Assembly: GCA_029263315.1 (NCBI GenBank) | Contig: JAJCXR010000055.1 | Location: 124,195-188,194, forward strand | Reading direction: 5' to 3' | Origin: Acidobacteriota bacterium | GTDB taxonomy: Bacteria; Acidobacteriota; Thermoanaerobaculia; Multivoradales; J023 | DNA: 64,000 bases | Shown here: positions 15,564 to 39,384 of the stretch, piece by piece | Layout: every line of letters starts with the position of its first letter | Position numbering within the stretch: the stretch's first letter is position 1 | The notes under the pieces: generated by a model | Databases searched by the model: none | Told to the model about the DNA's origin: nothing | Seen by the model: only the letters and a program-made list of their open reading frames with translations | Made by a program: the position numbers and the translations under genes

Positions 15564-15583
15564 GTTGGACATGGAGATCGGTG

Positions 15584-18001: not shown

Positions 18002-18050
18002 GGCACAATGTCACCGAATGGACCGCCGCCGAGTAACGTACAATGAACCT

Positions 18051-18473: not shown

Positions 18474-18476
18474 GCG

Positions 18477-20629: not shown

Positions 20630-20639
20630 GGATGGAACG

Positions 20640-23054: not shown

Positions 23055-24389
23055 TCATTGAACCGGCATCAACTCCTTGAGCGCGATTACCGTTGCCACC
23101 ACACCGCTGCGCACGGAGGGCTCGGGCGAGATCTCGAAGAGCGGCGAATGGTGGGAGGGCACGGGTTTGCCCCCCGCGGCCTCTTCGTCAAAACGCTCCT
23201 TGGGAGTGCCGCCGATGGCGAAATAAGCGCTGGGAATGTACGGATCCGTGGTCAGGAAGCCAAAGTCTTCAGCGCCCATGCCTTGGCGCTCGTGGTCGGC
23301 AAAGACCCCATCGCCGAGCTCAGCGCGCCAACGACTGCTGATCCGCTTGACCAGGGATACATCATTGACGGTGACGGGAACCCCGCCCCGCAGCTCAACC
23401 CGCGGCAGCCGATCCTCCGGCAGACCCGCGGCGCGGCCGGTGTTGACGGCGATACGCTCGATGCCTTCGAGCAGGGTCTGTCTCGTTTTTGTAGAGTCGG
23501 AGCGCACGGTTAGCTCGAGCACCGCCTCTTCGCCGATGATATTTCTCTTGTTACCGGCGCGAAAGACACCGACCGTGACCACCCCCGGTTCTCTGGGGTC
23601 GAGCTCCCGCGACACCAGCTGCTGAAGCGCCACGACGATCTGTGAGCCGATGAGAATCGGATCTTTGCCGCGATGGGGACTGGCCCCATGGGCACCGATG
23701 CCCGGAACGATGATGTCGACGCTGTCGGCCCCTGAGTAGGCGGCGCTCTCGGCGACAAAGATCTTTCCGGCTTCGATGGCCGCGGCCACATGAAAGGCCA
23801 GGGCAAAGTCGGGCTGGCCGAAGCGTTTCCAGAGATCGTCTTGGTGCATTGCCTGGGCGCCGGAAATCTTCCACTCTTCTGCCGGCTGTCCGATCAACAT
23901 GAGCGTGCCGGACCAGGAGCCCTTCTCGGCGGCCATGCGGCGGGCCGTGCCCACCAGTGACGTGATGTGCACATCGTGGCCGCAGGCATGCATCACCGGA
24001 AATTCCTGGCCGTCGTCGTTGACCTGCGTCGCTTGGGAGGCGTAGGGCAGACCCGAGAGCTCCTTGACCGGCAGGCCATCCATGTCGGCCCGCATCATCA
24101 CCAGGGGCCCAGGCCCGTTCTCCATTATGGCCACGATACCCGTGCGTCCCACCTTCTCAGTGACCTCGAAACCGGCGCTACGCAGCTCCGCCGCCAGCCG
24201 TGAAGCGGTCTTGTGCTCGACAAAAGAGTGCTCCGGGTTGGCGTGAAAGTGCTTGAAGAGGGTGCCCAGATGGGCGTCGTAGTCGGCTTTCACCGCCGCG
24301 ATCAGCTCGTCGTTGGCTGATGCCAGGGACGGTAGCCCGACAAGAGCTATCAGGGTGAGGGAAATCATCAGGCGTTGCATCATCGGCAC
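23055..24389 (-). CDS. M20D-family amidohydrolase/peptidase (aminoacylase / hippurate hydrolase-like), secreted
   Basis: Signal peptide MPMMQRLMISLTLIALVGLPSLASA. Metal-binding motif MHACGHDVH and the M20 dimerisation-domain pattern. Confidence 0.85.
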   Translation of the reverse strand: MPMMQRLMISLTLIALVGLPSLASANDELIAAVKADYDAHLGTLFKHFHANPEHSFVEHKTASRLAAELRSAGFEVTEKVGRTGIVAIMENGPGPLVMMRADMDGLPVKELSGLPYASQATQVNDDGQEFPVMHACGHDVHITSLVGTARRMAAEKGSWSGTLMLIGQPAEEWKISGAQAMHQDDLWKRFGQPDFALAFHVAAAIEAGKIFVAESAAYSGADSVDIIVPGIGAHGASPHRGKDPILIGSQIVVALQQLVSRELDPREPGVVTVGVFRAGNKRNIIGEEAVLELTVRSDSTKTRQTLLEGIERIAVNTGRAAGLPEDRLPRVELRGGVPVTVNDVSLVKRISSRWRAELGDGVFADHERQGMGAEDFGFLTTDPYIPSAYFAIGGTPKERFDEEAAGGKPVPSHHSPLFEISPEPSVRSGVVATVIALKELMPVQ

Positions 24390-24536: not shown

Positions 24537-24980
24537 TTACGGCTGGGGTGGGACGATCGGCGCCTCGGCCTGGGCCAGTGCAGCCAAGAGCTCTCTTGGC
24601 ACATAGACGGCAAGGGCGCCGGCCGCGAAGCCGCTAGGATCCCGGGTCACCACCGCTTCCACTCCAGCCTCACGGCCAGCCTCGTGCAGCACTGCGTCAT
24701 CGAAATCTTTGATTCCCGTCAACAGGGCCGATTCCAGGACGCTTCGAGTTACGGGAGCAATCTCGAAGAGCCGAAGCAGATCCTCTAGGAATGTGCAAGC
24801 TGCCGTCGGATTTCGTGCACGGGCCGCAACATAGTGAATCGTCGTCAAGGTCGTTGCGCCGAGGACCCCTGTCAACTCACCTCGCTCTACTAGGTCGATC
24901 AGCTCGGCGGCGCTGTCCGACCACGGTGCTCTGTCCAAGAGAAGATCCAAGACAAGGTTGGTATCAAAGAGAATCTTCAA
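24537..24980 (-). CDS. vapC: PIN-domain ribonuclease toxin (VapC-like)
   Basis: MKILFDTNLVLDLLLDR... with the conserved acidic residues of the PIN fold. Overlaps the upstream antitoxin by 4 bp. Confidence 0.75.
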   Translation of the reverse strand: MKILFDTNLVLDLLLDRAPWSDSAAELIDLVERGELTGVLGATTLTTIHYVAARARNPTAACTFLEDLLRLFEIAPVTRSVLESALLTGIKDFDDAVLHEAGREAGVEAVVTRDPSGFAAGALAVYVPRELLAALAQAEAPIVPPQP

Positions 24981-25216
24981 AGGTGTTTGTCCAACAGGTG
25001 ATTTCGATAGTCGTCCTCATCGATATTCACCCCCGACAGAGTTCCTCGCAACCTCCTGACGATCGGTGACAGCTCTTTTCGAGGCTCGCGAGGGGCTGTC
25101 AGGGCAATGAAGTAGTCTTCGACCAGGCGCGACACCGGCTTGCCGACTTTCCGAGAATAGGACTTGGCACGGTGGATGACGTTTTCATCGAGGCGTAGAG
25201 TTAGCTTCGTATTCAT
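24977..25216 (-). CDS. Putative VapB-type antitoxin (79 aa)
   Basis: MNTKLTLRLDENVIHRAKSYSRKVGKPVSRLVEDYF is a CopG/RHH-like antitoxin N-terminus. Start at the internal Met (25216); the ORF is open to 25255. Confidence 0.5.
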   Translation of the reverse strand: MNTKLTLRLDENVIHRAKSYSRKVGKPVSRLVEDYFIALTAPREPRKELSPIVRRLRGTLSGVNIDEDDYRNHLLDKHL

Positions 25217-25306
25217 CTGCTGAGCCCCCTGTGATGTTGACGTACAGTCTACCATGACAGTGCCGTGCAGCGCCCTGGGTCCTGGAGCCTTTTGACAGGT
25301 GCTTTT

Positions 25307-28300
25307 CTACTCCGCCAAGGCCCGCGTATCGATCTTGCGCAACGACGCCACCAAGTCACGCATCATGTCGAGGTTGCGCAGGGTGCGATCCAGGTAGTGG
25401 GTCATCTGCCGATCGCCCTTGGATTGCTGGCCCAAGGTCTTGACGACGGGCATCAGCTGGTCGTTGACGGCGTCGCTGAGGCGGCTCAGCAATTCGTGCA
25501 CGCCGGGGGTGAGGGACTGGACGACCTCCTTGCCCCGGGGGGCCTCGGCCAGGCGCTCCAGGGTGCTGCCGAGGCGTTCCAGGTAAGGGCTCAGGTCGGT
25601 GCCAGGCACCTGCGGCGGAGCGCTGGCGGGCACAGTGCCCGATGCTGGTGGGAGGTTTTGTGTCGCCTGGAGGACGCCCTTGGCGAGGTGCTCACCGAGC
25701 TCGCTGAAGGTGGCGTCGAGGCGTTCTAGGAGGGGCGACAGGTCGGGCGCGGGCGGGGGGGCCTTTGCCGGCTTGCCCTTGGACGGCGCAGCGGCCTTGG
25801 CCAGGGCTTCGAGACGGGCGATGAGGGTGTCGAGGCGGGGTGCCAGCAGGTCTCCGATGCCGGAGTCGCCGCTTTCCGGGGACGCCGAATCCTGCGACTG
25901 TGCTGCCAGGGCCTCGAGGTTACCCTGCAGCTTGTCGAGGAAGGGATCGACGAGGCCGGCGAGGCTTTGGAGTAGGGGGCCGTCGTCCCGCTGCGGGGCC
26001 TCCCGGGCTTTGTCGATACCGCGGCCGATTTCTCCGAGGCGATCGGAGACCAGCCCCAACTGACCCAGGAGACGAATGGCCGGGTCGTCGTCGGAGCCGC
26101 CCATGGCCTGGACGCGGGCGAAGCCGCGTTTGATCTCTTGCCAACGTTCCTCCTGCTCCGGCGTCAGGGTGCCGCGCAACTCCGCCAGCTTGAGCAGGTT
26201 GTGCTCGGCGCCGCTGGTCAAGGTTTGGGCCTCGCCGATGTAATGATCGTCGATCAGGGCTTCCAGCTCACGATCGTTCATCACCGCCACAACTTTTTCC
26301 GCCAGCTTGTTCATGTTGCGGTAGCTGCCCTGCAACTGGAAGCGGGGCTCGGTGCGATAGGCGTCGTCCTGGGCCGCCGACAGGATGTATTGCTGGTTGA
26401 TGGCCAACACCACCTCTTGGATGCGCAACAGCTTGCGCAGCACTGAGAGGATTTCTTCCAGCTCCATGGCGGAATAGCCGTGGCTCAGCTGGTCGGCCTG
26501 CAGCGCACCGTCGCGGGCCATCTCCACCAGCTTGAAGACATCGTCCGGGTCGCGGGTGGTGAGCGGCGCCAGGACGGCGTTGGAGGTCAGGCTGTTCTCG
26601 ATGTAGCTGAGGGCGAAGACGTCGTCCTTGCCTTCGAGAATGTCCCCCAGGTTGTATGTGTCGGCTCGGTTGGCCAGCATGTCGGGGATCTGGAATTTGT
26701 CACCGGACTCGGTGTAGGGATTGCCGGCCATGCAGATGGCGAAGCGTTTGCCCTTGAAATCGTAGGTGCGGGTGCGGCCGTTCCACACCCCTTCGATGCG
26801 CCGTTGGGCGTCGCAAAGAGAGATGAATTTTTGCAGCAGCTCGGGATGGGTGTGCTGGATGTCGTCGAGGTACAGCAACACATTGTTACCCATCTCCAGG
26901 GCGAAATTGATCTTCTCGACCTCCTGCCGTGCCGTGGCGTTGGGAGCGTCTAGGGGGTCGATGGAGGTGACGGCGTGGCCGAGGGCGGGCCCATTGACCT
27001 TGACGAAGACCAACCCCAGACGGTTGGCGATGTACTCCATCAGGGTGGTTTTGCCATAGCCCGGGGGCGAAATGAGCAGCAAGAGCCCCATCTGATCGGT
27101 GCGTTTGTCGTCGCCGAGGGCGCCCATCTGCTTGGCCAAGTTGTCGCCGATGATCGGCAGGTAGACCTCGTTGATCAGGCGGTTACGGACGAACGAGCTC
27201 ATCACTTGGGGTTTGTATTCACCGAGCCGCAAGGCATGTCGCTGTTGCTCCAGGAGTCGATGCCTGAGGGCCTGGAAACGGCGGAAACCGGGCACTCGAT
27301 GCTGGCGGAAGTGGGCCAGGCGGCTGAGCAGCTCGTCGAGGCGCAAGCTCAGGGTGCGCTGCTCGATCCGAGGATGCTGGCCCAACAATCCGCTGACCTC
27401 GGCTTTGGCCAGGGCTTCGCTGGCCGACCTCTCGATACGGTCGCGGCTGATCAGCTGGACGACGGCCTCATTCTCTGCCGGTGCCAGCTGCATCAGCTCC
27501 TTGGCCCGCTGGCTCACATCGTCGTCGGAGGCTGCGCCCGCGGAGGCGAGGAAACCGCCCAGCCAAGCCTTGGCCAGGTGAAAGCGCTGGCCGAGATGCC
27601 CTTCCAGCTCCTGCAAATCCCGCTGCAATTCACCTGCGCTGCGACTGTTCTTCAGGTGTTCGGAGAACAGCTCGAGCAGCTTGTTGGCTTCGGCGCTGAT
27701 CACCAAACGCACCGGGTCTTGGCACAGCTCTTCGAAGAGATAACCCCCCGCCATGTGGGCGTCCTCCGGTGTCAGCTCGATGCTGTGCTGACGGTGGAAG
27801 GCGGCGATGCCCTCGCTGAGCTCTGCGGCCAAGGTGACGATGGCCGGGCTGTGGGCGAAGGCGGTCCGCAGGCGTGCCAGGCTGACGGCGCGACGGTGCC
27901 AGGTGGCACGCTGCGTCGCCTCGTCGAAGAAGGCCCAGTAGAGGACAGCGGCGGCCCTGGCCCGGGGTGTGAAGCGCAGCAGGCCCGCATTGGAGTAGAG
28001 CGCTATCAGCTGTTGCAGGATGAGCACCGTGTCGGCGTCGTGTAGTCCCCGCTCGTAGCCTTCGTCATAGCGCTCGGCGCTGTAGGTGCGCACCAAGCCG
28101 AGGAGGGCCCCGGGCTCTTCCGCCGCTTGCTGCAGGGCCGTCAAGCTGAGCCCTGCCCGCTCTTCCTCGGCATCGAAGAGGATCGAGGCGGCGAGATACT
28201 CCCCCCGGTAGACCTGCGCCGTTTCGGAGACCAAATGCTGGTCCCAGTAGTCGCGGGTGGCAGCAAAGGCCTCGTCGTTCACCGGCTGATAGAAATCGGT

Positions 28301-30970
28301 GCCGGTGAGGTGATAGGCCATGGTCGTCTGCCCCTCGTCGTCGGCCCTGGGTACCAAAGTGAGGGCGACGGGCTGGGTGTTGACGCTGAAGCGGTGACGG
28401 CCGAATTTGATGACGTTGCTGCCGTCCTCGAAGATATCTTGCCGGTCGCGCAGGGCACGGGCGGCCTCTTCTTTCGTCGCCTTGAGGCGCGAGTCCAGCT
28501 CGTCGGCGCGGACGTTTTCTTTGATTTCCCGCAGCTCTGAGGCCAGGTCCCGCACCTTGGCCACCATGGCGTCGCCGACGAAATAGGTATTGAGATCGTC
28601 GGCCGACTCGAGGGCCGAGGCTCGGCGGGTGATGCCCTCGAGGATGCGTTGCGCCGCCTGCACCATGCGACCGGCCCGTCGCTGCCGGGCGTCGAGCAAG
28701 GATTGCTTGCGGGAGCTGAAAGCCTCGTAGACGTCCTCTCGCTTGGTGGCCAGTTGCTCGATGAACTGGTCGAGCTCGCCGAAGCGGCTTTCCAGCTCTT
28801 CCAGCTGCAGCATCAGCTTGGAGAGTTGCTCGTCGCATTTCTCCGGCGTATCGGCCATCGCCAAGGCGCCGCTCACCGCCTGGCTGAAAAGCTTGAACTG
28901 GGCGCCAAACTCGGCCACCCCTTCGGCCGACATCAGCTCCTTGCGCCGCGCCTCGAGCAGGGCGCGGCCGCGGTTGAGGTTGCCTAAAACCTCGGAAATG
29001 TCTTCCAAGATGGCGGTGCGAACCGTGGCGTCGTCGATGTCGAGACCACCCAAGACGTCGTTGAGCAGCTCGAGGCTGGTGGCCACGTGGTCGAGCCCGT
29101 CGCGGATGGGGACGGTCTCGGCGACCTTGGCGACCTCATCCACCGAGGCCACCAGCCCTTCGATCTTCTGGTGGTACGGCGCCAGGGCGGTGTCGCCTTC
29201 GAGAAAGGCCACCATTTGATCACTGAGCTCGGAAAAGCGCTCGACGAGGCGCTGCTCTAGGGCATCGACCCGCTCTTGATCGACGTAGCGCAACTCCCGC
29301 ACGGTGAGCAGGTGGCCCCGTTGGTGGCGCAACTCGGCGAGGGCATCGACGAAGTGGTCGACGGCGTCGCGGGACTGTCGCCGCAGGGTTTCGAAAAGCT
29401 CTTCCAGGGTGCCCTCGGCGGCGTCGGTGGCTTCCTGGGCGCGACGCTGAATGGCTTGGACCTTGGCGAATTCGTCGACGATGAGCTCGGCGGTGCCGTA
29501 GATCTCCTGCAGCTCGTCGGCCAAGTTGCCGACTTCGTCGCGATTCAACCAGTAGTAGGTGTCCTGGGCTCGCACCACACTGGCGATCAGATCCTCGTAG
29601 GTCTGCGTCGTCGGCTCTTGATCTTCGATGGTGCGGCAAATGGAGAGGGCGTCCGAGATGCCGCGCACCAGATCGGCATTGCCCACCTTCTCCAGAAAGG
29701 TCCCCTGGGACGGCGCCTGGGCGGCGTGCACGTCGCTCATGTAGGGGGTCTGCCAGACCTGCATCGGGTGGACCCGCGTCGGCTCGCTGGAGACGGCGCG
29801 GAAGATCACCAGGCGGCCGTCGTCGAAGAGGCTGAAGCCATTGCAGTAGATGGGGTTCTCCACCTGCTTGCGGATCATGTTGTACGACAACAGGATGCTC
29901 TGGCCGCTGTCGCGCTCGTGGAAGACGTAGAGCACATCTTCGCCATTGGGAGAGCGCACTGACTTGAGGAATTCCATCTGCTCGATGTTGCCCTCAAAGG
30001 TCTTGGTCTCACCGTTCTGCAGGTAGTAGCCGCCGGGAAAGATCAGGCCGTGGTCCTCTGGCAGCAGCAGACAGGCTTGGCCGATGGCGTCGATGCGATG
30101 CACCTTCTGGTTGCGGGTATTGAAGATCAGATAACGCCAGATGGTCTCGTTGTAGGGCAGGATCTTGAGCAGGATCAGGCTGCCCACCTTGGCGTAGTGG
30201 ACCTGCGCGTCATCGAGGCTCTGCTGCGCTTCGTCGACATCTTCGCTGTAGATGCCGAGGCCGTCCTCGGTGTTGTCCTCCACCTTGACGGTGAGGTCAC
30301 CGCCTACCGTTTCGACGAAGACTTCGTCGAGGATGTTGACGTGGGGATGCCGTCCGTGCACGTGATGCTGGCGGCCGGTCTCCTGCCACTCGAAGTCGTG
30401 GGAGGGCGGAAAGACATGGTCCCGCTCGCCGCGATTGTCGATGTAGGTAACCCGGCCCTGCGGGTCCACCGCCCAGCGGAAGACTTTGAAATCCGTCAGG
30501 TTGGCGCCGGTGCGGAAGACCGCCAGCAGCTTGCCTTCGGTGCGTCGGAGCTGCATCAGGCGAGCGTCTTTGTAGTACTTGTAGAGCTCTTGGAAGTCCC
30601 GCAGCAAGGTACGGTCGTTGAGGAAGTACTGCCGTGCGTCCGTGGCCACCGGCTCGAAAGAGAAGGTGTCGTCCTTCTCGACGAAACGGTGCAGGCTGAG
30701 CACGTCCTCCATGTGGGTCTCGGTCTTGAGCCCCAGAAAGACGTTGTAGCCGAAGAGCAAGAGCTCACCGACGGCTCGGATGTCCCGCGGCACACAGTTG
30801 TGCTCGGTGCGGATGCGCTCGTTGCCGATCAACGCCATCTCGGTGCCGCCGAAGAGCTCCAGGCGCTCGCCGTTGAGGCTGTTGGCCTTCTTGGCGAGCT
30901 TCTTGGAATGCTCCCCTAGGCGGCCCCGGAGAATCTCGTAGGTGCCGCGTTCGATGGTGTCGCTGCTCAT
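25307..30970 (-). CDS. Giant (1887 aa) multidomain protein with a single dynein/MoxR-type (AAA_5-like) AAA+ module in its C-terminal third
   Basis: Walker A LLLISPPGYGKTTLMEYI (about nt 27045-27080), Walker B NVLLYLDDIQ, sensor FAICMAGNP. The N-terminal ~430 aa are beta-rich (possibly a propeller). About 850 aa of helical/coiled-coil follow before the AAA+ domain; the C-terminal ~350 aa are helical with a Pro/Ala-rich linker. The stop lies 5 bp after the start of the upstream flotillin gene. Confidence 0.8.
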   Translation of the reverse strand: MSSDTIERGTYEILRGRLGEHSKKLAKKANSLNGERLELFGGTEMALIGNERIRTEHNCVPRDIRAVGELLLFGYNVFLGLKTETHMEDVLSLHRFVEKDDTFSFEPVATDARQYFLNDRTLLRDFQELYKYYKDARLMQLRRTEGKLLAVFRTGANLTDFKVFRWAVDPQGRVTYIDNRGERDHVFPPSHDFEWQETGRQHHVHGRHPHVNILDEVFVETVGGDLTVKVEDNTEDGLGIYSEDVDEAQQSLDDAQVHYAKVGSLILLKILPYNETIWRYLIFNTRNQKVHRIDAIGQACLLLPEDHGLIFPGGYYLQNGETKTFEGNIEQMEFLKSVRSPNGEDVLYVFHERDSGQSILLSYNMIRKQVENPIYCNGFSLFDDGRLVIFRAVSSEPTRVHPMQVWQTPYMSDVHAAQAPSQGTFLEKVGNADLVRGISDALSICRTIEDQEPTTQTYEDLIASVVRAQDTYYWLNRDEVGNLADELQEIYGTAELIVDEFAKVQAIQRRAQEATDAAEGTLEELFETLRRQSRDAVDHFVDALAELRHQRGHLLTVRELRYVDQERVDALEQRLVERFSELSDQMVAFLEGDTALAPYHQKIEGLVASVDEVAKVAETVPIRDGLDHVATSLELLNDVLGGLDIDDATVRTAILEDISEVLGNLNRGRALLEARRKELMSAEGVAEFGAQFKLFSQAVSGALAMADTPEKCDEQLSKLMLQLEELESRFGELDQFIEQLATKREDVYEAFSSRKQSLLDARQRRAGRMVQAAQRILEGITRRASALESADDLNTYFVGDAMVAKVRDLASELREIKENVRADELDSRLKATKEEAARALRDRQDIFEDGSNVIKFGRHRFSVNTQPVALTLVPRADDEGQTTMAYHLTGTDFYQPVNDEAFAATRDYWDQHLVSETAQVYRGEYLAASILFDAEEERAGLSLTALQQAAEEPGALLGLVRTYSAERYDEGYERGLHDADTVLILQQLIALYSNAGLLRFTPRARAAAVLYWAFFDEATQRATWHRRAVSLARLRTAFAHSPAIVTLAAELSEGIAAFHRQHSIELTPEDAHMAGGYLFEELCQDPVRLVISAEANKLLELFSEHLKNSRSAGELQRDLQELEGHLGQRFHLAKAWLGGFLASAGAASDDDVSQRAKELMQLAPAENEAVVQLISRDRIERSASEALAKAEVSGLLGQHPRIEQRTLSLRLDELLSRLAHFRQHRVPGFRRFQALRHRLLEQQRHALRLGEYKPQVMSSFVRNRLINEVYLPIIGDNLAKQMGALGDDKRTDQMGLLLLISPPGYGKTTLMEYIANRLGLVFVKVNGPALGHAVTSIDPLDAPNATARQEVEKINFALEMGNNVLLYLDDIQHTHPELLQKFISLCDAQRRIEGVWNGRTRTYDFKGKRFAICMAGNPYTESGDKFQIPDMLANRADTYNLGDILEGKDDVFALSYIENSLTSNAVLAPLTTRDPDDVFKLVEMARDGALQADQLSHGYSAMELEEILSVLRKLLRIQEVVLAINQQYILSAAQDDAYRTEPRFQLQGSYRNMNKLAEKVVAVMNDRELEALIDDHYIGEAQTLTSGAEHNLLKLAELRGTLTPEQEERWQEIKRGFARVQAMGGSDDDPAIRLLGQLGLVSDRLGEIGRGIDKAREAPQRDDGPLLQSLAGLVDPFLDKLQGNLEALAAQSQDSASPESGDSGIGDLLAPRLDTLIARLEALAKAAAPSKGKPAKAPPPAPDLSPLLERLDATFSELGEHLAKGVLQATQNLPPASGTVPASAPPQVPGTDLSPYLERLGSTLERLAEAPRGKEVVQSLTPGVHELLSRLSDAVNDQLMPVVKTLGQQSKGDRQMTHYLDRTLRNLDMMRDLVASLRKIDTRALAE

Positions 30971-30974
30971 CGCC

Positions 30975-33026
30975 TCAGGACTTGAAGAGGGCCGAGAGCT
31001 TTACATCTTCGACGCCCATGCGCTCGACCACTTCCGACAGCTGCTCGAGCTTGACCTGTTTGTCGCCTTCGGACTTGCTCGCCAATTGGGAGAGGAAGGC
31101 GGCCAGGGTGAGATTGCGCACATCGGCGCTGGAGGTGGCGGGACGGGTGAGCACGTCCTTGAGGTCGGCGGCAAAGCTGGAATCGCCGCTGAGGTAGTCG
31201 CCGAGCAGCTTCTGGCCGGTTTCGCTGCGATCGATGAAACCATCGATGGATTTGCTCATGCCGATGCTGTTGACCAGGCGATCGAAGAACATGCTGTCGC
31301 CGCCGACGATGTCGATCTTGGCGTTCTGCAGGCCCGTCGACAGCACACCGGCTTGCACCTCTGCCACTTTGCGGTGGGCGTCCACTTGTGCCAGGGCGAC
31401 ATCCTTCTCCATGGCCAGGCGCAAGCGAAATTCCTCGTGCTCCTGGCTGGCTTCGTCGAGGGCCTTCATGGCGTTGGCTTTCTCGGTCAGGCCCTCGGCT
31501 TCGCCCTTGAGCTTTTCGCGGATGGCTTCGGCTTCCGCCAAACCCATTTCCTTGAGCACCTTGGCTTCGATGAGCTGCATGCGCTCCTCGGCATCGACAT
31601 CCGCTTGTTTGACTTCCACCTCCGCCAGTCCGACCTTCTTGGTGGCGTCGGCATTGGCTTCTTTGACCCGCACTTGGGCCAAGCCGACCTTCTCGATGGC
31701 CTCGGCGTCGGCCTCTTTGACTTGGACCTCGGCCAAACCCCTGGCGGCGGTCTCCGCCTGCACACCTTCGGCCATTCGCATCTTGGCTTTGGCTTCCTTG
31801 TCGCTGGCTTCGAGGTGGGCTTCGGCGAGGATCAGCTGTTCGCGGCCCTTGTGCTTGGCGGCGGCTTCGGCGGCTTCGGCGGCCTTGATGTCCTTGACCA
31901 ACTGTTCTTCGGCGTGGGCTTCGGCGCCGATGATGGTCGCTTCTTTGGTCCGGTTGGCCTCTTCGACGAGGCGCAGCCGCTTGATGGCCTCCTCCTCCTC
32001 CGCCACCGTCTTCTCCACCGAGATGCGCTCGCGGATAACGCTGGCGATGTCCCGTTTCTGGACTTCCACTTCCTTGTCCTTGGCGATGGTCTGGAGCTCG
32101 GTCTCCCGTTCCCGGGAGATGACCTCGATCAGGCGTTCCTTTTCGACCCGCTCGGTCTCCACGGCCACCACCCGCTCGCGGTTCTTTTGGGCCACCTCCA
32201 CTTGACGCTTGAGGTTCTCCTCCTGGACGGCGATGTCCTCATCGGCCTTGATGCGCGCCGTCTCGAACTTGAGCCGTTCCTCGGCCTCGATTTTTTGTGT
32301 TTCCGCCTGCTCCCGGGCCCGGACCGACAGGATCTCCCGCTGCTGTTTGGCCTCGGCGTCGGATTTCTGACGCTCGAGCTCGAAGATGGCCTCCGCCGCT
32401 TCGACATCCTGCTTGGTGATCTGCTTCTTCTCGGTGTTCTGGAACTCGTTGGTGCGCACGTGCTCGATGGCCGTCAGCTCAGTGATCTTGCGGATACCCT
32501 GGGCATCGAGGATATTGTGCTCGTCGAGCTTTGAAATTGGCGTCTGCTCGAGGTAGTCGATGGCGCAGTCTTCGAGGGAATAGCCGTTGAGATCCTGGCC
32601 AATGACCTCGATGATCTCATCGCGAAACTCTTTCCGCTGGGTGTAGAGATCGACGAAATCCAGCTTCTTGCCCGCGGTTTTCAAAGCTTCCGAGAATTTG
32701 GCGGCGAAGAGGTGCTCCAGCGTTTTCTGATCCGAAGCGCGGGCGCAGCCGATGATCTGTGCCACCTTGATGACGTCTTCGGCGGTTTTGTTGACCCGCA
32801 CGAAGAAGGTCACTTTGATGTCGGCGCGGATGTTGTCGCGACAGATCAAGCCATCAGAGCCGCTGCGATCGATCTCGATGGTCTTGACCGAGATGTCCAT
32901 GAGCTCGGCTTTGTTGATCACCGGGACAACCAGGCCGCCGGTGAAGCTGACCGTCACCGTGCCCCTGACCACGTTGCTCAGAACCAATGCTTTGCCTTGT
33001 TCTACCTTGAGAATGCCGAATGCCAT
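30975..33026 (-). CDS. SPFH/band-7 flotillin-like protein (YqiK-like) with a long Glu/Ala-rich coiled-coil tail
   Basis: N-terminal membrane hairpin + SPFH domain (MAFGILKVEQGKALVLSNVVRGTV...). Extended EA-rich repeats (GLAEVQVKEADAEAIEKV / GLAQVRVKEANADATKKV / GLAEVEVKQADVDAEERM). Confidence 0.85.
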   Translation of the reverse strand: MAFGILKVEQGKALVLSNVVRGTVTVSFTGGLVVPVINKAELMDISVKTIEIDRSGSDGLICRDNIRADIKVTFFVRVNKTAEDVIKVAQIIGCARASDQKTLEHLFAAKFSEALKTAGKKLDFVDLYTQRKEFRDEIIEVIGQDLNGYSLEDCAIDYLEQTPISKLDEHNILDAQGIRKITELTAIEHVRTNEFQNTEKKQITKQDVEAAEAIFELERQKSDAEAKQQREILSVRAREQAETQKIEAEERLKFETARIKADEDIAVQEENLKRQVEVAQKNRERVVAVETERVEKERLIEVISRERETELQTIAKDKEVEVQKRDIASVIRERISVEKTVAEEEEAIKRLRLVEEANRTKEATIIGAEAHAEEQLVKDIKAAEAAEAAAKHKGREQLILAEAHLEASDKEAKAKMRMAEGVQAETAARGLAEVQVKEADAEAIEKVGLAQVRVKEANADATKKVGLAEVEVKQADVDAEERMQLIEAKVLKEMGLAEAEAIREKLKGEAEGLTEKANAMKALDEASQEHEEFRLRLAMEKDVALAQVDAHRKVAEVQAGVLSTGLQNAKIDIVGGDSMFFDRLVNSIGMSKSIDGFIDRSETGQKLLGDYLSGDSSFAADLKDVLTRPATSSADVRNLTLAAFLSQLASKSEGDKQVKLEQLSEVVERMGVEDVKLSALFKS

Positions 33027-33052
33027 GGAATCAATACCTCCAGAAAAAGGGC

Positions 33053-33817
33053 TCAGAGATCGCGGACGAGCGGCGACGGCGCGGCCGTCTCGACATCGGC
33101 GCGCGGTTGAGCGACGAAAAAAACTTGGGTCTGAGGGTCGTAGTCGAAGATCAATGCCTTGTCGCCGCGACGCAAGGTGTTGGCGTCTCGACTGCGGGCT
33201 TGGATGAGAATCGTCGAGGCGTCATTGTCCACCACTTCGGCCTGGCCGAAGGTTCCGTCGACCCTCAGCGTGGTGACGGTGCAGACCTTGCCCACCAGGT
33301 CGGAATGCTGGGTCACCGGCGGTAGGGCGAAGACCTTTTTCAGCGGACGCAGGCTGATCGAGGTGGCCACCAAGGAAGCTCCGACGGAGCCGACTCCCAC
33401 AGCCCAAGGCACCAAGGCCACCATCGAGGCTGCCAGATCGAGGTGGGAAATCCACGACGATCCGAAGTAGGACCCCAGCCAGCCGAAGACCGTGAAGGTG
33501 GTGAGGATGATGATGCTCGGCACCCCTCCCAGACCGAGGCAACCATCGTGGTCGCCCATGCCATCGGCCCCTTCGGCCAAACCCTCGGCGGCGCCCTCCG
33601 CGGCCCCTTCGATCATGCCTTCGGCGGCCCCGCCGATGGAGTCCGTCGCGCCACCCAAGGACTCGGCGGCTCCGCCGACGGAATCAAAGACGCCGTCCAG
33701 GATCTCTAGATCCAGAATGCCGAAAAGAAACGTCAGCCAGTAGAAAGCCACCAGGATCAGCAGCCCGCTGAAAATGGCGGTGGGTAGCGAGAAGGCGGCT
33801 TCGAGGAACGCGCTCAT
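33053..33817 (-). CDS. NfeD-like membrane protein (YqiJ-like) with C-terminal OB-fold
   Basis: N-terminal TM helices, a Gly/Ala-rich middle, and a C-terminal NfeD OB-fold-like segment GKVCTVTTLRVDGTFGQAEVVDNDASTILIQARSRD..LRRGDKALIFDYD. Sits 26 bp upstream of the flotillin gene, which is the classic yqiJ-yqiK arrangement. Confidence 0.65.
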   Translation of the reverse strand: MSAFLEAAFSLPTAIFSGLLILVAFYWLTFLFGILDLEILDGVFDSVGGAAESLGGATDSIGGAAEGMIEGAAEGAAEGLAEGADGMGDHDGCLGLGGVPSIIILTTFTVFGWLGSYFGSSWISHLDLAASMVALVPWAVGVGSVGASLVATSISLRPLKKVFALPPVTQHSDLVGKVCTVTTLRVDGTFGQAEVVDNDASTILIQARSRDANTLRRGDKALIFDYDPQTQVFFVAQPRADVETAAPSPLVRDL

Positions 33818-33980
33818 GGTTTGTGGCTCACAGGAAAGAGGTTGTCGGTCACAACCCTCTTTACGGTAGGCGAGGACGCTCTATTCGTCACCATCTCCTC
33901 GATTGTGTGAGCGGGTTCTCAGTCCCTCGGCCCGCCGAAGCAGCCCATAGGTCGAAGCTTCATCACCCCAGCGCCCAGCC

Positions 33981-36440
33981 TCAATAACCCCAGCGCGGCC
34001 ACAGGGCTTCCGTGCCGGTGATCTTGCCCAGGCCCTCGGTGTACATGCGCGCCGTCTCGACCAAACCCGGGGTGATGATGTGCTGGCCGCGGTGGTCCAT
34101 CTGGAAGAGATGTTTCCAGGTCTCGCGGGTGCCGAGCTCGATGCGCCGCCGGGTCACCTTGTCCCCCAACCGACGGAGGCGTAGCAGCATGGCGTTGAGA
34201 CCGCAGGTGGTGAAGTACGAGCCGATTTCGACCTCCTGCAGCCAGCTCTTCAGCGCCTCGGAGGAGTCGAAAGAGTGGACTTGGGACGCCAAGTCGCGAT
34301 GTGAGGCGGCCTTGGCCGTGGTGGCCAAGGCGTGGGGTCGCAGGTCGACAAAACCGTTGTTGACGATGGTCCAATCGCGGTAGGTGGTCATCGGAACGCC
34401 GATGGCGGTGGCCCGTTCTCGCCACAGGTCGCTCACCTCGTGTCGGCGTACGATGGCGGCGTCGAGGGGGGCAACATAGGGCCCCACCAACATGCGATCC
34501 CGCCGGCGTCCGGTATCGTGGAAGAGGATGGGGATACCGAGGGAGGTGATGCTTTGCAGATAGCGTCCGATACGGGTGGCCAAACGGGCTAAAAAACGTT
34601 CCCGCCCCGGCTGCCGGAGGCCATGGGTGTGCGGGTCGTAGCCCAAGAGCTGGCCGGCGGATTCCATCGAATCGGCCCGACAGAGATTGTAGAAACCGCA
34701 GGCCAGCTCGTCGACGCCCAGGGTCTGCAAATCCTCGAAGCAGGGACGATGGGTTTCGTGCCACAGGAAGTCGTCGATGTCCGTCAAGGCATCGATCAGC
34801 TGTTGCTCGGTGTAAAGATGAAACTTGCTGGCCAATTGCCGTAGGCGCAACAGGAGCAACAGCAAGCCGAGCTCGTGGAGCCTCGCCTGGTGGGTGGCGG
34901 AGCCCAGGGCTTGATAAGCCTGGAGGGCAAAGGGCCCATGGTGGGCCCTCTGCAATTGCGGGTAGTTGTCCAACAGGCGCAGGGCGAAATAGGAGTTCTC
35001 GGTCTCGGTGTAATAAGCGATTTTTTCCTGGAACCAGTCCCGACGCCGTTCTGGACCAAAGAGGGCATGGCGCACCAAGACCATGGCCAGCTCTTCGGGG
35101 ATGGCGACCTTCATGACGTTGTACAGGGCGATGCAATTGGCGACCGAGAACAGGCCGTTTTCGCCGGAGCGAATTGCGGCGGCGACCATCAGCTCCTTGC
35201 CCTGCCCGAACTGCAACAGATCCTTGTCGGCTTTCGGGGCTTGGAGGCCTTGGATCGGCAGCTCCTGGGTGACGTCGTCGTTCTCGGGGAACGGGGCGCC
35301 GGCCTCGGGCGACGGGTTCTCCTGTTCCGGCGCTCCAGCCGCCGCGCTCTGGTCCCCGTTCCCTGGGGCGGCATCGACGGTTGCCTCGGACGCTTCCGCC
35401 GGCTTCTCGAAATCCAGCGGCAGCTCCTGGCAGGGATAGAGGAGGATATTGGGTTGGTCGAGGTCGGCGGGCCGCAGATGGGGTTTGTCGAGGCCCCGGA
35501 GCCGTTGCTCGACGGCACCCTTGATGGCCGGCGTGGCGGGAAGCTGACAACGCAACTCGACGGCGTCGATGCCGATGGCCGCGGCGGTGACCAGGACGTC
35601 GAAGCCGTGGTCGATGTAGAGTTGGGTCAGCTCGTCGGCAAAATATTTCTTGTCCACCAGCTTGTCACCGAGGGCGCTGTGGGCAAAGCCGAGGCGGATC
35701 TCTGCCTGTCCGCCGTCGACCCGGTACATGCCACCGACCGCGGTGGTGTGGGCGATCACCACATGGCGAGCATGGCGTTGCTGGATGACGGCCAGGCCTC
35801 GGATGAAGGTTTGCAGGTAAGCCTTCTTGAGGCGCTGATTCTGCACGTGATCCATGCCGTGTTCCGCCGCCAAACGATCAATCGCCACCAGCGTATAGGT
35901 GGCGACGCTGGGTAGTGGAATGGCCACCACCACGGCGTGCAACAGGCGGGCATCGAGGCCTTCGATGTAGCTGAGGAAAGGGCAGGGCTGGGCGGCGAAG
36001 TAGGCGTCGAGGGCTACCCCCAGGTCAAAGCTTTCGCCTTTGGCCACCCGCCGTTCGGCGACGTGGGTCGGCAAATCTTGAGGGATTTCGAGCTGCAAGA
36101 GGGAGAACTTCAAATCGATGCGGCCGTCGATGCGGAAATGGCGCCGAGGTTTGATCTTTTCGACGGAAAACTCACCATCGAAGGCCAGGTAGAGCCGCTG
36201 CACGAACTTGACGATTTCTTTCTCAGACATGCCGGTGGCGTGGATTTCCCCCTGCAAGGGGCTCTGGCGCAAGCTCTTGGACATCAAGATCATGCGGCAG
36301 AGCTCCATCACCGAAGCGCCTCCCACGGCACCGGTGCCACCAAAAACGACGAAGTACACCGGCTCGTTGCCGCCGCCGGGCAATAGGCGGGTGGCGAGAA
36401 TGTGCTCGAGGGACTCGAACTCGTGATAAACGGTTCTCAT
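33981..36440 (-). CDS. Hypothetical 819-aa two-domain protein; N-terminus has a GGTGAVGG Rossmann-type dinucleotide-binding loop
   Basis: YFVVFGGTGAVGGASVMEL near the N-terminus. Acidic/Pro-rich linker (EKPAEASEATVDAAPGNGDQSAAAGAPEQENPSPEAGAP). C-terminal ~430-aa domain of unknown type. The overlapping 543-aa ORF in another frame is R/P/G-rich and judged spurious. Confidence 0.6.
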   Translation of the reverse strand: MRTVYHEFESLEHILATRLLPGGGNEPVYFVVFGGTGAVGGASVMELCRMILMSKSLRQSPLQGEIHATGMSEKEIVKFVQRLYLAFDGEFSVEKIKPRRHFRIDGRIDLKFSLLQLEIPQDLPTHVAERRVAKGESFDLGVALDAYFAAQPCPFLSYIEGLDARLLHAVVVAIPLPSVATYTLVAIDRLAAEHGMDHVQNQRLKKAYLQTFIRGLAVIQQRHARHVVIAHTTAVGGMYRVDGGQAEIRLGFAHSALGDKLVDKKYFADELTQLYIDHGFDVLVTAAAIGIDAVELRCQLPATPAIKGAVEQRLRGLDKPHLRPADLDQPNILLYPCQELPLDFEKPAEASEATVDAAPGNGDQSAAAGAPEQENPSPEAGAPFPENDDVTQELPIQGLQAPKADKDLLQFGQGKELMVAAAIRSGENGLFSVANCIALYNVMKVAIPEELAMVLVRHALFGPERRRDWFQEKIAYYTETENSYFALRLLDNYPQLQRAHHGPFALQAYQALGSATHQARLHELGLLLLLLRLRQLASKFHLYTEQQLIDALTDIDDFLWHETHRPCFEDLQTLGVDELACGFYNLCRADSMESAGQLLGYDPHTHGLRQPGRERFLARLATRIGRYLQSITSLGIPILFHDTGRRRDRMLVGPYVAPLDAAIVRRHEVSDLWRERATAIGVPMTTYRDWTIVNNGFVDLRPHALATTAKAASHRDLASQVHSFDSSEALKSWLQEVEIGSYFTTCGLNAMLLRLRRLGDKVTRRRIELGTRETWKHLFQMDHRGQHIITPGLVETARMYTEGLGKITGTEALWPRWGY

Positions 36441-36649
36441 GTGATGTCGTCGTCCGCCAAAGACTGTATTGCACCTGCCAACAGGGTGCTCCCATCAACA
36501 GAGGTCTGTATTGATTGTCCTGTGTCGATCTTTCTGGGCCGATCGTAGCTTCAGAACCTGTAGTGTCTAGGTACGTTCTTACCCCGTGATCATAGCGGAT
36601 CGACGGGGCATCGCCCATGGCCCATTTCGAATGCCGACGTCGGAGGGCC

Positions 36650-37933
36650 TCAGCAGAGGGGAGTGTCCTCGCCGAGGGGCAAAAGGGGGGCGCTGGGGGT
36701 CAAGGGAGCGTCCTCCGGCTCGCCGACGCTCCAGGTGGCGTCGAGCTCTGCCAAGTAGGCGCGCACCGACCCGGCGACGCTAGCTGCGATCTGGCCCGCC
36801 ACCTGATCGGCATCACTGCGCAGACGCCAAGGCAAGCCTCGATCATCGAGGTCGCAGAGCAGATCCTTGCGGACCTCGAGGCCGAGGCAGCTGGGTCGCA
36901 CCTTGGGATCAAGACGGTACATCTCCACCAGCTCGTTGCGATGGGTGGCCTGGAAGCGACTGATCTTGGCGTAGGCTTTGCGGGCTTCGGCGAACAGGGT
37001 TTCGCTGCCGGGGGGGGCTTCCCGATAGCGGTGCAAGTAGGCCCGGAGGCGTTCGCAGGGGGCAGAGCGGCGAACCACGTCGAGCAAAAGCTGCCAAATC
37101 CGTTGGTAGGCCAGCTGATCGCTGGTCTCCGGGTGGGCAGCGGTGAAGCGACGCCGCAGGAAGCGGAAATAAAACCAGACCTGGGCACGGATCTCCACCG
37201 AGCCTTCGGGCATCAAATAGGGATAGTCGAGGGCGGTGGGCCAATCCAGGTCCTCGAGATCGAGGGCGATGCGATAGCTCAGCTTGCGGTGCGTCGTTTG
37301 CTCCCCGAGGATATGTGGGAACAGCGGATCAAAGATGAATGGAGGCATCTCCGATGTCTCCTGATAGGAGAGAGAGCGGGTCACCAGGCTGATTTCGGGC
37401 CGTGAGGTGCCGGTGCGATTCACCTGATCGTAGGTGTGAACCGCCAAGGTCAGGCGCCGGTCGGCGAAATGCTGCACCAGATTCTGAGACATGGTGTCGT
37501 AATAGCGCGCCAACAGGTCATGGCGCGCCTCTTCGGAGAGTAAATGCTGCAACGGCGGGAAGATGGAGTGGCGTAGCAGGTAATTCTCGCCGATCGACGA
37601 AATACCCGGGAAGCGGCCGAAATCGAGCACCACACGGGCCAACGAAACTCGCAGGTAGGAGTCTTGTCCGAGCTCTTTGGCGAGGTGGCGAGCCACCAGA
37701 TTGGCACCCCAATCGCGCTCGCGGGCATAGGCGTCACGGACTTCCGGTAGGTCGATCACTTGGTCGCTGCGTTCGCCGAAGAGATGACGCGGGAAGCCAT
37801 CCCCATCATGGATGGTGAAGACCAGCGGTCCGTCGGGGTCGGTGGCCGTTTGGGGTTGGCTAGACACCGGAATCCTCTCCAGCGGCTCCATCGCATCGAC
37901 GATCTTGGGGCGGGGCGATTCGGTAACAGTCAT
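36650..37933 (-). CDS. Hypothetical protein, N-formylglutamate amidohydrolase (FGase)-like N-terminal domain with a ~150-aa C-terminal extension
   Basis: LVFTIHDGDGFPRHL, ARVVLDFGRFPG and LTLAVHTYD align by eye to the FGase motifs (..PHAG.., ..IDLNRP.., ..WDAHS..). Weak call. Confidence 0.35.
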   Translation of the reverse strand: MTVTESPRPKIVDAMEPLERIPVSSQPQTATDPDGPLVFTIHDGDGFPRHLFGERSDQVIDLPEVRDAYARERDWGANLVARHLAKELGQDSYLRVSLARVVLDFGRFPGISSIGENYLLRHSIFPPLQHLLSEEARHDLLARYYDTMSQNLVQHFADRRLTLAVHTYDQVNRTGTSRPEISLVTRSLSYQETSEMPPFIFDPLFPHILGEQTTHRKLSYRIALDLEDLDWPTALDYPYLMPEGSVEIRAQVWFYFRFLRRRFTAAHPETSDQLAYQRIWQLLLDVVRRSAPCERLRAYLHRYREAPPGSETLFAEARKAYAKISRFQATHRNELVEMYRLDPKVRPSCLGLEVRKDLLCDLDDRGLPWRLRSDADQVAGQIAASVAGSVRAYLAELDATWSVGEPEDAPLTPSAPLLPLGEDTPLC

Positions 37934-38159
37934 TGGGTAAGGGATTCCTGAGGCAGTTCTTGGGGGTGGGGGCGATATGTTGCGATCCCACTGTCGGGGC
38001 GATTGTCAAGGGGGATCCAATAAGCTCAAATGCCTGTCGACGTGCGCATTGTATCCAGGAAAGGGGACCGATGGAAGACCGACCGGTTGGACGGAAAAGG
38101 TCTGTCGCCAGGCGCAAGGGTTTACGCCAACCGTCGAAGACGATCGGTCACGCCAGCCG

Positions 38160-39377: not shown

Positions 39378-39384
39378 GTCGGGC

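Follow-up and report, generated by a model that had tools for sequence, protein, structure and literature searches.

Three adjacent minus-strand genes, encoding a small membrane protein, a flotillin and a giant ATPase, raise the question of whether they act together and whether they belong to a known system. An initial annotation had proposed an undescribed membrane-associated system. The locus was analysed in its surroundings (the window, i.e. the whole 64,000-nucleotide stretch of DNA) and in homologous loci from other genomes.

Three genes, one operon

ORF calls in the window gave three co-oriented genes with exactly the boundaries claimed initially. The features of the operon, all on the minus strand, are as follows.

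33839..33857, minus strand: terminator-like hairpin, 21 nt upstream of the ATG of the first gene (terminator scan and sequence)
33053..33817, minus strand: YqiJ/YuaF-type membrane anchor, 254 aa (hydrophobic segments, hhalign against YqiJ, BLASTP against BacC)
30975..33026, minus strand: YqiK-type flotillin, 683 aa (hhalign against YqiK, identity to BacD)
31590..31736, minus strand: 54-nt tandem repeat, 2.7 copies, in the flotillin coiled coil (tandem repeat search)
25307..30970, minus strand: giant soluble AAA+ protein, 1887 aa (Pfam domains, >7500 homologues, BacE identity)

The spacer between the anchor and flotillin genes is 26 nt, as annotated initially; that between the flotillin and giant genes is 4 nt (TGAggcgATG) and not 5 bp. 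A strong SD sequence (GGAGG) is located 9 nt ahead of the flotillin ATG. No promoter-like or terminator-like sites were found by the scan between the three genes, including the junction of the flotillin and giant genes. The hairpin just 5' of the first gene was the only terminator-like hairpin found by the scan; it probably terminates the upstream transcription unit or is a structure within a 5' leader. A sigma-54 site was not found upstream of the operon. The three genes thus constitute a real operon consisting of a membrane anchor, a flotillin scaffold and a giant ATPase.

Pfam and NCBIfam searches at normal thresholds missed both the anchor and the flotillin, and their identities rest on profile comparison. 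The anchor contains three hydrophobic segments (19-mers at residues 3–40, 92–114 and 128–151), a Gly/Ala/Glu-rich loop and a strand-rich C-terminal region, which aligns with the C-terminus of YqiJ and weakly with the soluble (NfeD-type) domain of YuaF. Its family matched Escherichia coli YqiJ with a probability of 87.8% and E = 3.3e-6 (hhalign), in agreement with the YqiJ-type protein proposed initially. The matches of the anchor profile to YuaF (2K14; E = 0.51) and to Pfam YqiJ_N (E = 0.02, two of 13 family members) were weak, and the anchor gave no Pfam NfeD match.

The flotillin comprises an SPFH domain (residues ~1–190), a Glu/Ala-rich coiled coil (residues ~190–560; 19% Glu, 17% Ala) and a conserved C-terminal IDIVGGD region. 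Its assignment as a YqiK-type protein held: the family matched E. coli YqiK with a probability of 99.9% and E = 1.7e-32 over 412 columns (hhalign). Pfam Band_7 was reached by only two of the 13 family members (best E = 1.2e-7), and neither the window flotillin nor its profile gave a direct Pfam or PDB sequence match. The tandem repeat encodes 18-residue GLAEVxVKEAxAxAxEKV units starting from residue 430, the copy number of which varies among homologues (alignment gaps at columns 500–590).

No hydrophobic or transmembrane (TM) segment was found in the window flotillin, which begins (MAFGILKVEQG) directly at the SPFH domain, with the strong SD sequence ahead. A TM helix is present in all 12 aligned relatives and in 72 of 78 loci; the TM-less start is shared with one homologous locus (L084). 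The N-terminal helix of the relatives has been lost in the flotillin of the window lineage. As the window flotillin has no TM helix of its own, it would have to be attached to the membrane through the anchor or the SPFH surface.

The giant AAA+ protein

No hydrophobic or TM segment was found in the giant protein. Its parts, all on the minus strand, are as follows.

29552..30898, minus strand: DUF3686 region, residues 25–473 (Pfam; AF2 secondary structure, pLDDT ~90)
28436..29698, minus strand: long helical/coiled-coil region, residues 425–845 (AF2 DSSP)
28937..29188, minus strand: DUF7902, residues 595–678 (Pfam, E = 6.6e-28)
27446..28363, minus strand: three-strand unit, residues 870–896, and compact all-helical domain, residues 922–1175 (AF2, pLDDT mostly 85–97 for residues 920–1175)
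26051..27181, minus strand: single AAA+ module with lid and conserved C-terminal helical extension, residues 1264–1640
27044..27070, minus strand: Walker A SPPGYGKTT, residues 1301–1309
26855..26878, minus strand: Walker B LLYLDDIQ, residues 1365–1372
26717..26734, minus strand: sensor-1 CMAGNP, residues 1413–1418
25310..26050, minus strand: C-terminal tail, residues 1641–1887, with helices and Pro/Ala/Ser-rich low-confidence linkers

Pfam assigned DUF3686 with E = 2e-213 and AAA/AAA_5 to residues 1297–1420. Together with the AlphaFold models (pLDDT 83.9 and 78.7; monomers only), these matches agree with the architecture put forward initially (propeller, long rod, single motor, helical tail), and the motifs quoted there lie at the residues given above. 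In the models, a beta-propeller (residues 46–407), preceded by one long helix (residues 10–40), is followed by a helical region (425–845), a beta unit (870–896), a second helical region (922–1175) that sits N-terminal to the ATPase, and the AAA+ core (~1296–1445) with its lid. The lid is followed by a helical tail, which is interrupted by four linkers of low confidence (pLDDT <50 at 515–523, 549–562, 592–610 and 630–640 in local residue numbering). The tail differs in length between lineages and retains a terminal LRKIDT motif in the consensus sequence; homologue matches stop near residue 1650 in Actinomycetota and in many Gammaproteobacteria. In full-length proteins (1.6–2.0 thousand residues), DUF3686 invariably lies at the N-terminal end. 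A Foldseek search using the propeller returned generic propellers only (E = 1e-5 to 1e-3) and no close structural relative.

The AAA+ module has a pre-sensor-1 beta-hairpin (residues ~1391–1404) and a conserved Arg1435, and its motifs are invariant across 82 sequences. Its fold is nearest to MoxR-type modules (MoxR/midasin/dynein, Pfam AAA_5). The invariant Walker B is LDD in place of the usual hDE, which may point to slow, switch-like hydrolysis rather than to a processive motor. This substitution would suit a giant protein serving as a structural scaffold that links the flotillin patch elsewhere, with the AAA+ module as an oligomerization or conformational switch that does no mechanical work; so would the ~1200 of 1887 residues that form non-catalytic propeller and helical rod, and the flexible C-terminal tail. 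However, Walker A, the sensor-1 Asn, the conserved Arg and the pre-sensor-1 hairpin are strictly conserved, as in an active ring ATPase, and the nearest structures are active remodellers, which makes a purely structural role quite improbable.

Modules related to the window AAA+ are found in the MoxR-family chaperones CbbQ, NorQ and RavA, in midasin and in dynein. MoxR ATPases usually pair with a VWA partner. The giant protein differs from this family in the ~1260 residues of propeller and rods on the N-terminal side, in the DD of Walker B and in having no VWA gene in its operon, either here or in the 80 homologous loci. A profile comparison with E. coli RavA was not significant. Genes for a separate small AAA+ protein and VWA_CoxE protein are located 4.3–7.2 kb upstream (38160–40218); among the relatives, only the closest retains this pair.

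Homologues do carry the name 'DNA repair ATPase' or 'ATPase involved in DNA repair' in NCBI and Pfam, for which a check had been proposed initially. This label could draw on a weak local similarity to the P-loop region of RuvB and on recJ, two genes downstream in Pseudomonas aeruginosa. The alignment with RuvB covers no more than 44 P-loop columns, Pfam detected no DNA-binding or repair domain in the giant protein, and the conserved context is one of membrane stress. A function in DNA repair is scarcely credible, and the database name is probably misleading.

Homologous loci and described relatives

Homologous loci were collected from species genomes (Actinomycetota 36, Gammaproteobacteria 22, Myxococcota-type 19, plus others). 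In 78 of the 80, the flotillin and giant genes share strand and order, and the anchor gene almost always sits 5' of that for the flotillin. The operon occurs in at least six phyla, including in P. aeruginosa. The linkage of the giant gene to an SPFH gene that was proposed initially is therefore not due to chance. YjfI (DUF2170) and PspA genes precede the triad in 15 of the 22 gammaproteobacterial loci, and a rhomboid protease and/or a PLD-type hydrolase gene often follows it there; the CesT/Tir (YjfI/DUF2170)–PspA dyad is absent from all actinobacterial and myxobacterial loci. No PspA, YjfI, rhomboid or PLD gene was found within the 64-kb window, and any link to PspA would therefore be indirect here.

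In P. aeruginosa the order is DUF2170–PspA–213 aa–688 aa–giant–PLD, adjoined by yaeQ, recJ and a peptidase M4 gene, which we take to be lasB. On the megaplasmid pQBR103 the triad runs in one direction with genes for PspA, a rhomboid protease, DUF2491, DUF350, DUF1190 and a glutathionylspermidine-synthase-like protein. In the window a polyamine/DUF350/DUF4178 cluster lies ~2.8 kb from the end of the operon; it is directly adjacent in an 88%-identical relative. This type of cluster was linked to PspA by Ravi et al. (2024; PMC11237479).

A PIN_3/DUF6364 toxin–antitoxin pair is located 51 nt downstream of the operon, as had been noted initially. The linkage is not conserved: the pair is absent from this position in the 88%-identical relative, and its adjacency is incidental. 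Large coiled-coil ATPases are common in defence systems, and the coiled-coil region of the giant protein gave a weak coiled-coil-type match to LmuB (PADLOC). Together with the adjacent pair, these observations might suggest a membrane-acting anti-phage or abortive-infection system. Against this, neither the three proteins nor their neighbours gave a significant PADLOC match, with marginal P-loop/coiled-coil matches only. The giant gene is a core chromosomal gene with housekeeping flanks in P. aeruginosa (3222 member sequences). Among 72,556 plasmid records it was found in 13, each a very large record (169 kb to 11.9 Mb; several are chromosome-sized), and it gave no matches in phage. The conserved neighbours are PspA, YjfI, rhomboid, PLD and polyamine genes. 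A defence function is accordingly given a very small chance, and the search for a defence island suggested initially pointed to none.

The operon class has been described. In section 19 and Table S3 of Ravi et al. (2024; PMC11237479), a YqiJ/YuaF gene is followed by genes for a Band-7+coiled-coil+flotillin protein and a beta-propeller+coiled-coil+AAA-ATPase protein; domain architectures and gene order are identical to those in the window (Dokdonia example in Table S3). The same paper places CesT/Tir–PspA upstream of the operon in some lineages and reports a wide distribution of PspA-less abbreviated operons, some with an AAA+ ATPase. The work is comparative only and proposes no more than a general role as a chaperone or in sub-membrane assembly; no description of a TM-less flotillin or of its polyamine/DUF350/DUF4178 neighbourhood was found in the text consulted. 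The window operon is an abbreviated (PspA-less) form of this widespread phage-shock-protein (PSP) envelope-stress network operon. The initial designation as undescribed is thus withdrawn: the class dates from 2024, and the window adds little that is new in kind.

In P. aeruginosa the 'biofilm-associated cluster' bacABCDEF (PA3732–PA3727) is one operon by RT-PCR, and in a bacA mutant BacB–F over-accumulate 6- to 13-fold, with defects in biofilm formation, rhamnolipids and swarming (Wallart et al., 2024; PMC10948618). Judged by sequence, the window genes are counterparts of bacC–bacD–bacE (PA3730–PA3728). Their order and orientation are the same and the products are collinear homologues, with identities of 29% to BacC (BLASTP, E = 1e-21), 50% to BacD and 50% to BacE (PA3728; over 1708 aa). 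The window differs in lacking BacA (DUF2170/YjfI), BacB (PspA) and BacF (PLD-type), in its flotillin without a TM helix and in the longer C-terminal linker region of the giant protein. The P. aeruginosa phenotypes are pleiotropic and were seen in mutants of bacA and of bacB; no report of a bacE mutant was found in the literature searched.

The same kind of pair, an NfeD-type partner with a flotillin, is encoded by E. coli yqiJ–yqiK and Bacillus subtilis yuaF–floT, but these operons have no AAA+ gene. E. coli YqiK is shorter than the window flotillin (553 versus 683 aa) and, unlike it, carries an N-terminal TM helix. That a partner can hold a TM-less flotillin has a precedent in PspA–YdjG/H–YdjI of B. 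subtilis, where the SPFH protein YdjI requires integral membrane proteins as partners in order to localize and itself recruits PspA (Scholz et al., 2021; PMC8581546). That system differs from the window in its partners (YdjG/YdjH), in the absence of an AAA+ ATPase and in a much shorter SPFH protein.

A possible mechanism and its meaning

The locus is best explained as an abbreviated PSP-network/bacCDE-type operon, probably combined with ATP-driven remodelling of a flotillin lattice, a mechanism that we infer. In the likeliest reading, the anchor would hold the flotillin on the cytoplasmic face of the membrane, where the soluble AAA+ protein would remodel the assembly or its clients. In such a scheme the 3TM anchor would retain an oligomeric flotillin assembly at the inner membrane. 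The giant protein would oligomerize via its AAA+ ring, and its rods and propellers would reach the flotillin lattice or its clients, for example PspA polymers encoded elsewhere. ATP would be spent to assemble, remodel or recycle the lattice under membrane stress, in a manner comparable to that of Vps4 on ESCRT-III or of MoxR chaperones on their partners. The 'ATP-driven scaffold acting on flotillin microdomains' of the initial annotation may be regarded as reasonable in this light.

SPFH cages are also known to surround FtsH and to regulate it; this AAA+ protease (M41) belongs to the classical clade and is anchored in the membrane, and its HflK/C cage is periplasmic. By analogy with this pairing of an SPFH oligomer and an AAA+ ATPase at the inner membrane, the flotillin–anchor cage might gate or concentrate the giant protein at a patch of membrane, where its clients would be, for example, misassembled membrane proteins or machines of secretion and of the cell envelope instead of the flotillin. 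MoxR-type ATPases, to which the module is structurally matched, are client-specific chaperones, and in several loci of Gammaproteobacteria a rhomboid protease gene comes after that for the giant protein, with one also present in the pQBR103 cluster, which fits a theme of membrane-protein quality control. Unlike FtsH, however, the window ATPase is soluble and MoxR-like, has neither a protease domain nor a TM segment, and is encoded within the operon. The flotillin and the anchor are moreover the only invariant partners across phyla and are therefore the simplest candidate substrates. An FtsH-like arrangement is thus considered rather unlikely.

Returning to remodelling of the flotillin lattice, the comparison with Vps4 and ESCRT-III is a functional analogy only, that of a ring ATPase recycling a membrane-bound polymer. 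PspA, an ESCRT-III homologue, is encoded in the extended operon. Bacterial PspA has no known Vps4-like ATPase, and such an enzyme appears to be absent in bacteria (2025 review; PMC7619361). As a tentative proposal, possible rather than probable, the DUF3686 giant might be the missing bacterial ATP-driven recycler of sub-membrane scaffolds: a MoxR/dynein-type counterpart of Vps4 that would form a ring, dock through its propeller and disassemble or reshape SPFH cages or PspA polymers. If this were so, the TM-less flotillin would cycle on and off the membrane under the control of the ATPase.

Membrane organization and repair depend centrally on flotillin/SPFH cages and PspA/ESCRT-III polymers. 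We know of no bacterial ATPase that controls the assembly of either. Across at least six phyla, the gene that immediately follows the flotillin gene in this operon encodes a strictly conserved MoxR-type ATPase of very large size. In P. aeruginosa the operon affects biofilm formation, rhamnolipid secretion and virulence. The window provides a clean minimal three-gene version with a TM-less flotillin, which could be well suited to testing whether the ATPase remodels the flotillin.

Operon layout and gene linkage

Three ORFs were located on the minus strand, in exact agreement with the positions and shared orientation of the initial annotation:
33817–33053, minus strand: anchor, the small membrane protein (254 aa)
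33026–30975, minus strand: flotillin (683 aa)
30970–25307, minus strand: giant AAA+ protein (1887 aa)

The anchor/flotillin spacer is 26 nt, as annotated, and contains GGAGG 9 nt 5' of the flotillin ATG; the flotillin/giant spacer is 4 nt (TGA-GGCG-ATG) rather than 5. A separating terminator or promoter had been named as an argument against a single unit. The consensus scan detected neither promoter-like nor terminator-like sites in the two intergenic spacers of the triad, and the single terminator-like hairpin of the operon region was placed at 33857–33839, just 5' of the anchor gene. A search of 17–40 kb of the window against Rfam gave no family match.

More than 7500 homologues of the giant protein were found among the searched candidates; their usual NCBI name is 'DNA repair ATPase', a label for which the initial annotation had proposed a check. 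Their DUF3686 domain forms 754 clusters at 50% identity and is always N-terminal in full-length proteins (1.6–2.0 thousand residues). A one-genome-per-species scan gave at least 570 loci, the best 80 of which were examined (36 from Actinomycetota, 19 Myxococcota-type, 22 from Gammaproteobacteria and three others).

A flotillin homologue lies 5' of the giant gene on the same strand in 78 of these best 80 loci, almost always no more than a few hundred nucleotides away; this is clearly the reverse of homologues never adjacent to SPFH/NfeD genes, which had been named as counting against the partnership. In the two exceptions the contig has no upstream DNA (L035) or ends inside the giant gene, which leaves the giant ORF unclosed (L042). 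The anchor gene is 5' of the flotillin gene in nearly all of the best 80 loci. The triad linkage is real and strongly conserved, and the association with flotillin is phylogenetically stable. Pairwise identities of flotillin and giant protein correlate with r = 0.90, which is compatible with co-inheritance; the value was not counted as evidence of interaction because shared phylogeny alone would give the same.

The neighbouring genes of the window were assigned as follows:
39385–40218, minus strand: small AAA+ ATPase (MadB-like, below cut-off)
38160–39377, minus strand: VWA_CoxE protein
36650–37933, minus strand: 427-aa protein (no match in Pfam, NCBIfam or PADLOC)
33981–36440, minus strand: 819-aa protein (no match in Pfam, NCBIfam or PADLOC)
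24537–25255, minus strand: PIN_3 toxin (147 aa) and DUF6364 protein (92 aa), 4-nt overlap
20849–22507, plus strand: membrane-fused spermidine-synthase-like protein (552 aa)
about 20466–20852, plus strand: DUF350 protein
19067–20431, plus strand: zinc-ribbon and DUF4178 protein
18477–19118, plus strand: DUF4178 protein
17895–18473, plus strand: AdoMet decarboxylase
within 17895–22507, plus strand: 65-aa ORF

Conservation of the upstream set (33981–40218) does not extend beyond the closest relative. Its 819-aa and 427-aa proteins were rejected as parts of the system, with no family match and no homologue in the 80 loci. A histidine kinase gene was observed further 5' of this set. Elsewhere in the window, TPR repeats are combined with a C-terminal CHAT (caspase-like) domain in a protein of 1007 aa (10248–13271, minus strand), whose gene adjoins an ECF-type sigma factor gene (14532–15572) and a MacB/FtsX-type permease gene (15581–18001).

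The PIN_3/DUF6364 pair follows the giant gene after 51 nt that contain no terminator-like site. Toxin–antitoxin modules are immediately downstream, as had been annotated, but their association with the operon is not conserved: the pair is missing from this position in L084, an 88%-identical relative from an independent metagenomic assembly. On account of this absence the pair is probably a recent insertion, as are probably the M20 peptidase gene (23055–24389) and the HTH gene. The polyamine-type cluster (17895–22507, plus strand) is convergent with the operon and starts about 2.8 kb past its end; in L084 it directly abuts the operon, without intervening toxin–antitoxin, peptidase or HTH genes.

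A location in defence islands had been raised in the initial annotation, and a defence role would suit an adjoining toxin gene. The PIN_3/DUF6364 pair, however, is not conserved, the giant gene belongs to the chromosomal core of P. aeruginosa, and the plasmid search gave only 13 records, all of them very large. This reading, unlikely on these grounds, was rejected because PADLOC matched no system in the operon and its neighbours and a phage search for the giant protein gave zero matches.

Anchor and flotillin

At normal thresholds Pfam and NCBIfam recognized neither the anchor nor the flotillin, and direct sequence searches of the PDB gave nothing usable. The homology of both was shown by comparing family profiles with YqiK and YqiJ of E. 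coli. The flotillin profile (13 family members) matched YqiK with a probability of 99.9% (E = 1.7e-32, 412 columns) and had no PDB match by sequence; Pfam Band_7 was reached by two members of the family. The window protein is a genuine YqiK-type flotillin, and the long EA-rich coiled coil previously described for it (19% Glu, 17% Ala) was confirmed. A 54-nt tandem repeat (31590–31736, minus strand, 2.7 copies) encodes 18-residue GLAEVxVKEA repeats in this coiled coil. The length of the coiled coil may be evolutionarily adjustable, as suggested by a copy number that differs widely between homologues.

An N-terminal transmembrane helix was present in 12 of 12 flotillin relatives compared and in 72 of 78 loci, the remaining six being truncated or missed by the regular expression. 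The window flotillin starts directly at the SPFH domain, without this helix and behind a good ribosome-binding site, and L084 has the same start.

The anchor is membrane-anchored, with three hydrophobic segments. Its profile matched YqiJ (87.8%, E = 3e-6) and aligned weakly to the soluble (NfeD-type) domain of YuaF. It was accepted as a probable YqiJ/YuaF-type protein; the NfeD OB-fold of the initial annotation is no more than putative.

Antisense ORFs within the flotillin and giant genes (30942–32534, plus strand, 530 aa; 26975–28045, plus strand, 356 aa) were rejected as genes. They appear to result from high GC content and Glu/Ala-rich coding; antisense ORFs of this kind occur in many loci. 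Antisense ORF clusters in GC-rich loci were regarded as a spurious product of crude gene calling and were left out.

The giant AAA+ protein

Pfam assigned DUF3686 to residues 25–473 (E = 2e-213), DUF7902 to 595–678 and, marginally, AAA/AAA_5 to 1297–1420. The protein was modelled as segments 1–1200 and 1181–1887 from an 82-sequence alignment (pLDDT 83.9 and 78.7, respectively).

Organization of the giant AAA+ protein in the structure models
Residues 10–40: single long helix
Strands 46–407: beta-propeller, about seven blades of four strands each according to the DSSP string of the model
Residues 425–845: long helices (about 420 residues)
Residues 870–896: small three-strand unit
Residues 922–1175: compact helical domain
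Residues about 1264–1640: single AAA+ module, lid and conserved helical extension
C-terminal of the AAA+ extension: helical tail interrupted at four low-confidence linkers rich in Pro, Ala and Ser

No hydrophobic segment was found in the giant protein, which predicts that it is soluble. A Foldseek search of the 1–1200 model against the PDB gave generic propeller (E = 1e-5 to 1e-3) and solenoid matches only, from which no ligand or partner can be inferred. Sequence profiles against E. coli proteins were indecisive as to the AAA+ clade (RavA 6%, DnaA 19%, RuvB 94% over only 44 P-loop columns); structure comparison decided for a MoxR-type module. The P-loop similarity to RuvB would fit a DNA repair ATPase, as the database label has it, and this reading finds no support beyond it.

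Walker A (GYGKTT), sensor-1 Asn1417, Arg1435 and the pre-sensor-1 hairpin are invariant in the homologues. Walker B (LLYLDDIQ, residues 1365–1372, nt 26855–26878, minus strand) is invariant in 82 homologues and reads LDD, not hDE; Asp-Asp replaces Asp-Glu, resembling the DDIQ of DnaA. This DD makes it possible that the giant protein is largely a structural tether with a nucleotide switch.

Described operons and a proposed mechanism

Of the 22 loci from Gammaproteobacteria, 15 have YjfI/DUF2170 and PspA genes 5' of the triad, often with a rhomboid protease and/or HKD phospholipase-D-type (PLD) gene on the 3' side. Linkage to PspA is found in some phyla. On the megaplasmid pQBR103 the triad lies in a single-direction cluster with genes for PspA, rhomboid, DUF2491, DUF350, DUF1190 and a glutathionylspermidine-synthase-like protein. 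The P. aeruginosa DUF3686 protein P0131, a homologue of the giant protein, has 1746 aa and 3222 member sequences. The gene order there is DUF2170-PspA-213 aa-688 aa-giant-PLD, then yaeQ, recJ and a gene for a peptidase M4 protein, taken here to be lasB (PA3724).

Rhomboid genes directly follow the giant gene in gammaproteobacterial loci L041, L047, L050, L051, L056, L065 and L073, and one is inside the pQBR103 cluster (L087, 427–981). Rhomboid and PLD genes often occur together; passages of Ravi et al. (2024; PMC11237479) mention the PLD gene and not the rhomboid.

The P. aeruginosa order corresponds to PA3732–PA3727, reported by Wallart et al. (2024; PMC10948618) as the operon bacABCDEF. BacC, BacD and BacE share 29, 50 and 50% identity, respectively, with their counterparts in the window. 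bacABCDEF is co-transcribed (RT-PCR), with a proposed sigma-54 promoter; in a bacA mutant BacB–F over-accumulate 6- to 13-fold, with biofilm, rhamnolipid and swarming defects (PMC10948618). No match to such a promoter was found in the intergenic DNA upstream of the window operon, and sigma-54 motif counts across the whole window were at chance level.

Passages of the phage-shock-protein survey of Ravi et al. (PMC11237479) already describe the operon class, report abbreviated operons without PspA as widespread (example in Table S3) and tie PspA to polyamine/DUF350/DUF4178 clusters, the gene set present at 17895–22507. PspA, YjfI, rhomboid and PLD genes were all absent from the 64-kb window. The triad very probably belongs to this class, as an additional member that is abbreviated and whose flotillin has no TM helix. 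The anatomy drawn in the initial annotation was accurate; the system it took to be undescribed is of a kind described in these passages and as bacABCDEF. A literature search gave no paper on the biochemical role of BacE-type proteins, mentions of PA3728 being incidental.

We tentatively propose that the anchor would hold a flotillin oligomer at the cytoplasmic membrane face, that the giant protein would assemble into a ring through its MoxR-type module, and that its rods and propellers may contact the flotillin lattice, or clients of that lattice, for ATP-driven remodelling. In this specific form the mechanism falls somewhat short of an even chance. Flotillin and anchor are the most probable substrates because they are the only invariant partners. 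The main alternative is an HflK/C–FtsH-like arrangement, in which the flotillin would control the ATPase and other clients would be its targets. A precedent for partner-dependent membrane placement is B. subtilis YdjI, an SPFH protein that integral partners bring to the membrane and that recruits PspA (PMC8581546). According to a 2025 review (PMC7619361), bacteria appear to be without a Vps4-like ATPase for PspA; the giant protein could fill this gap.
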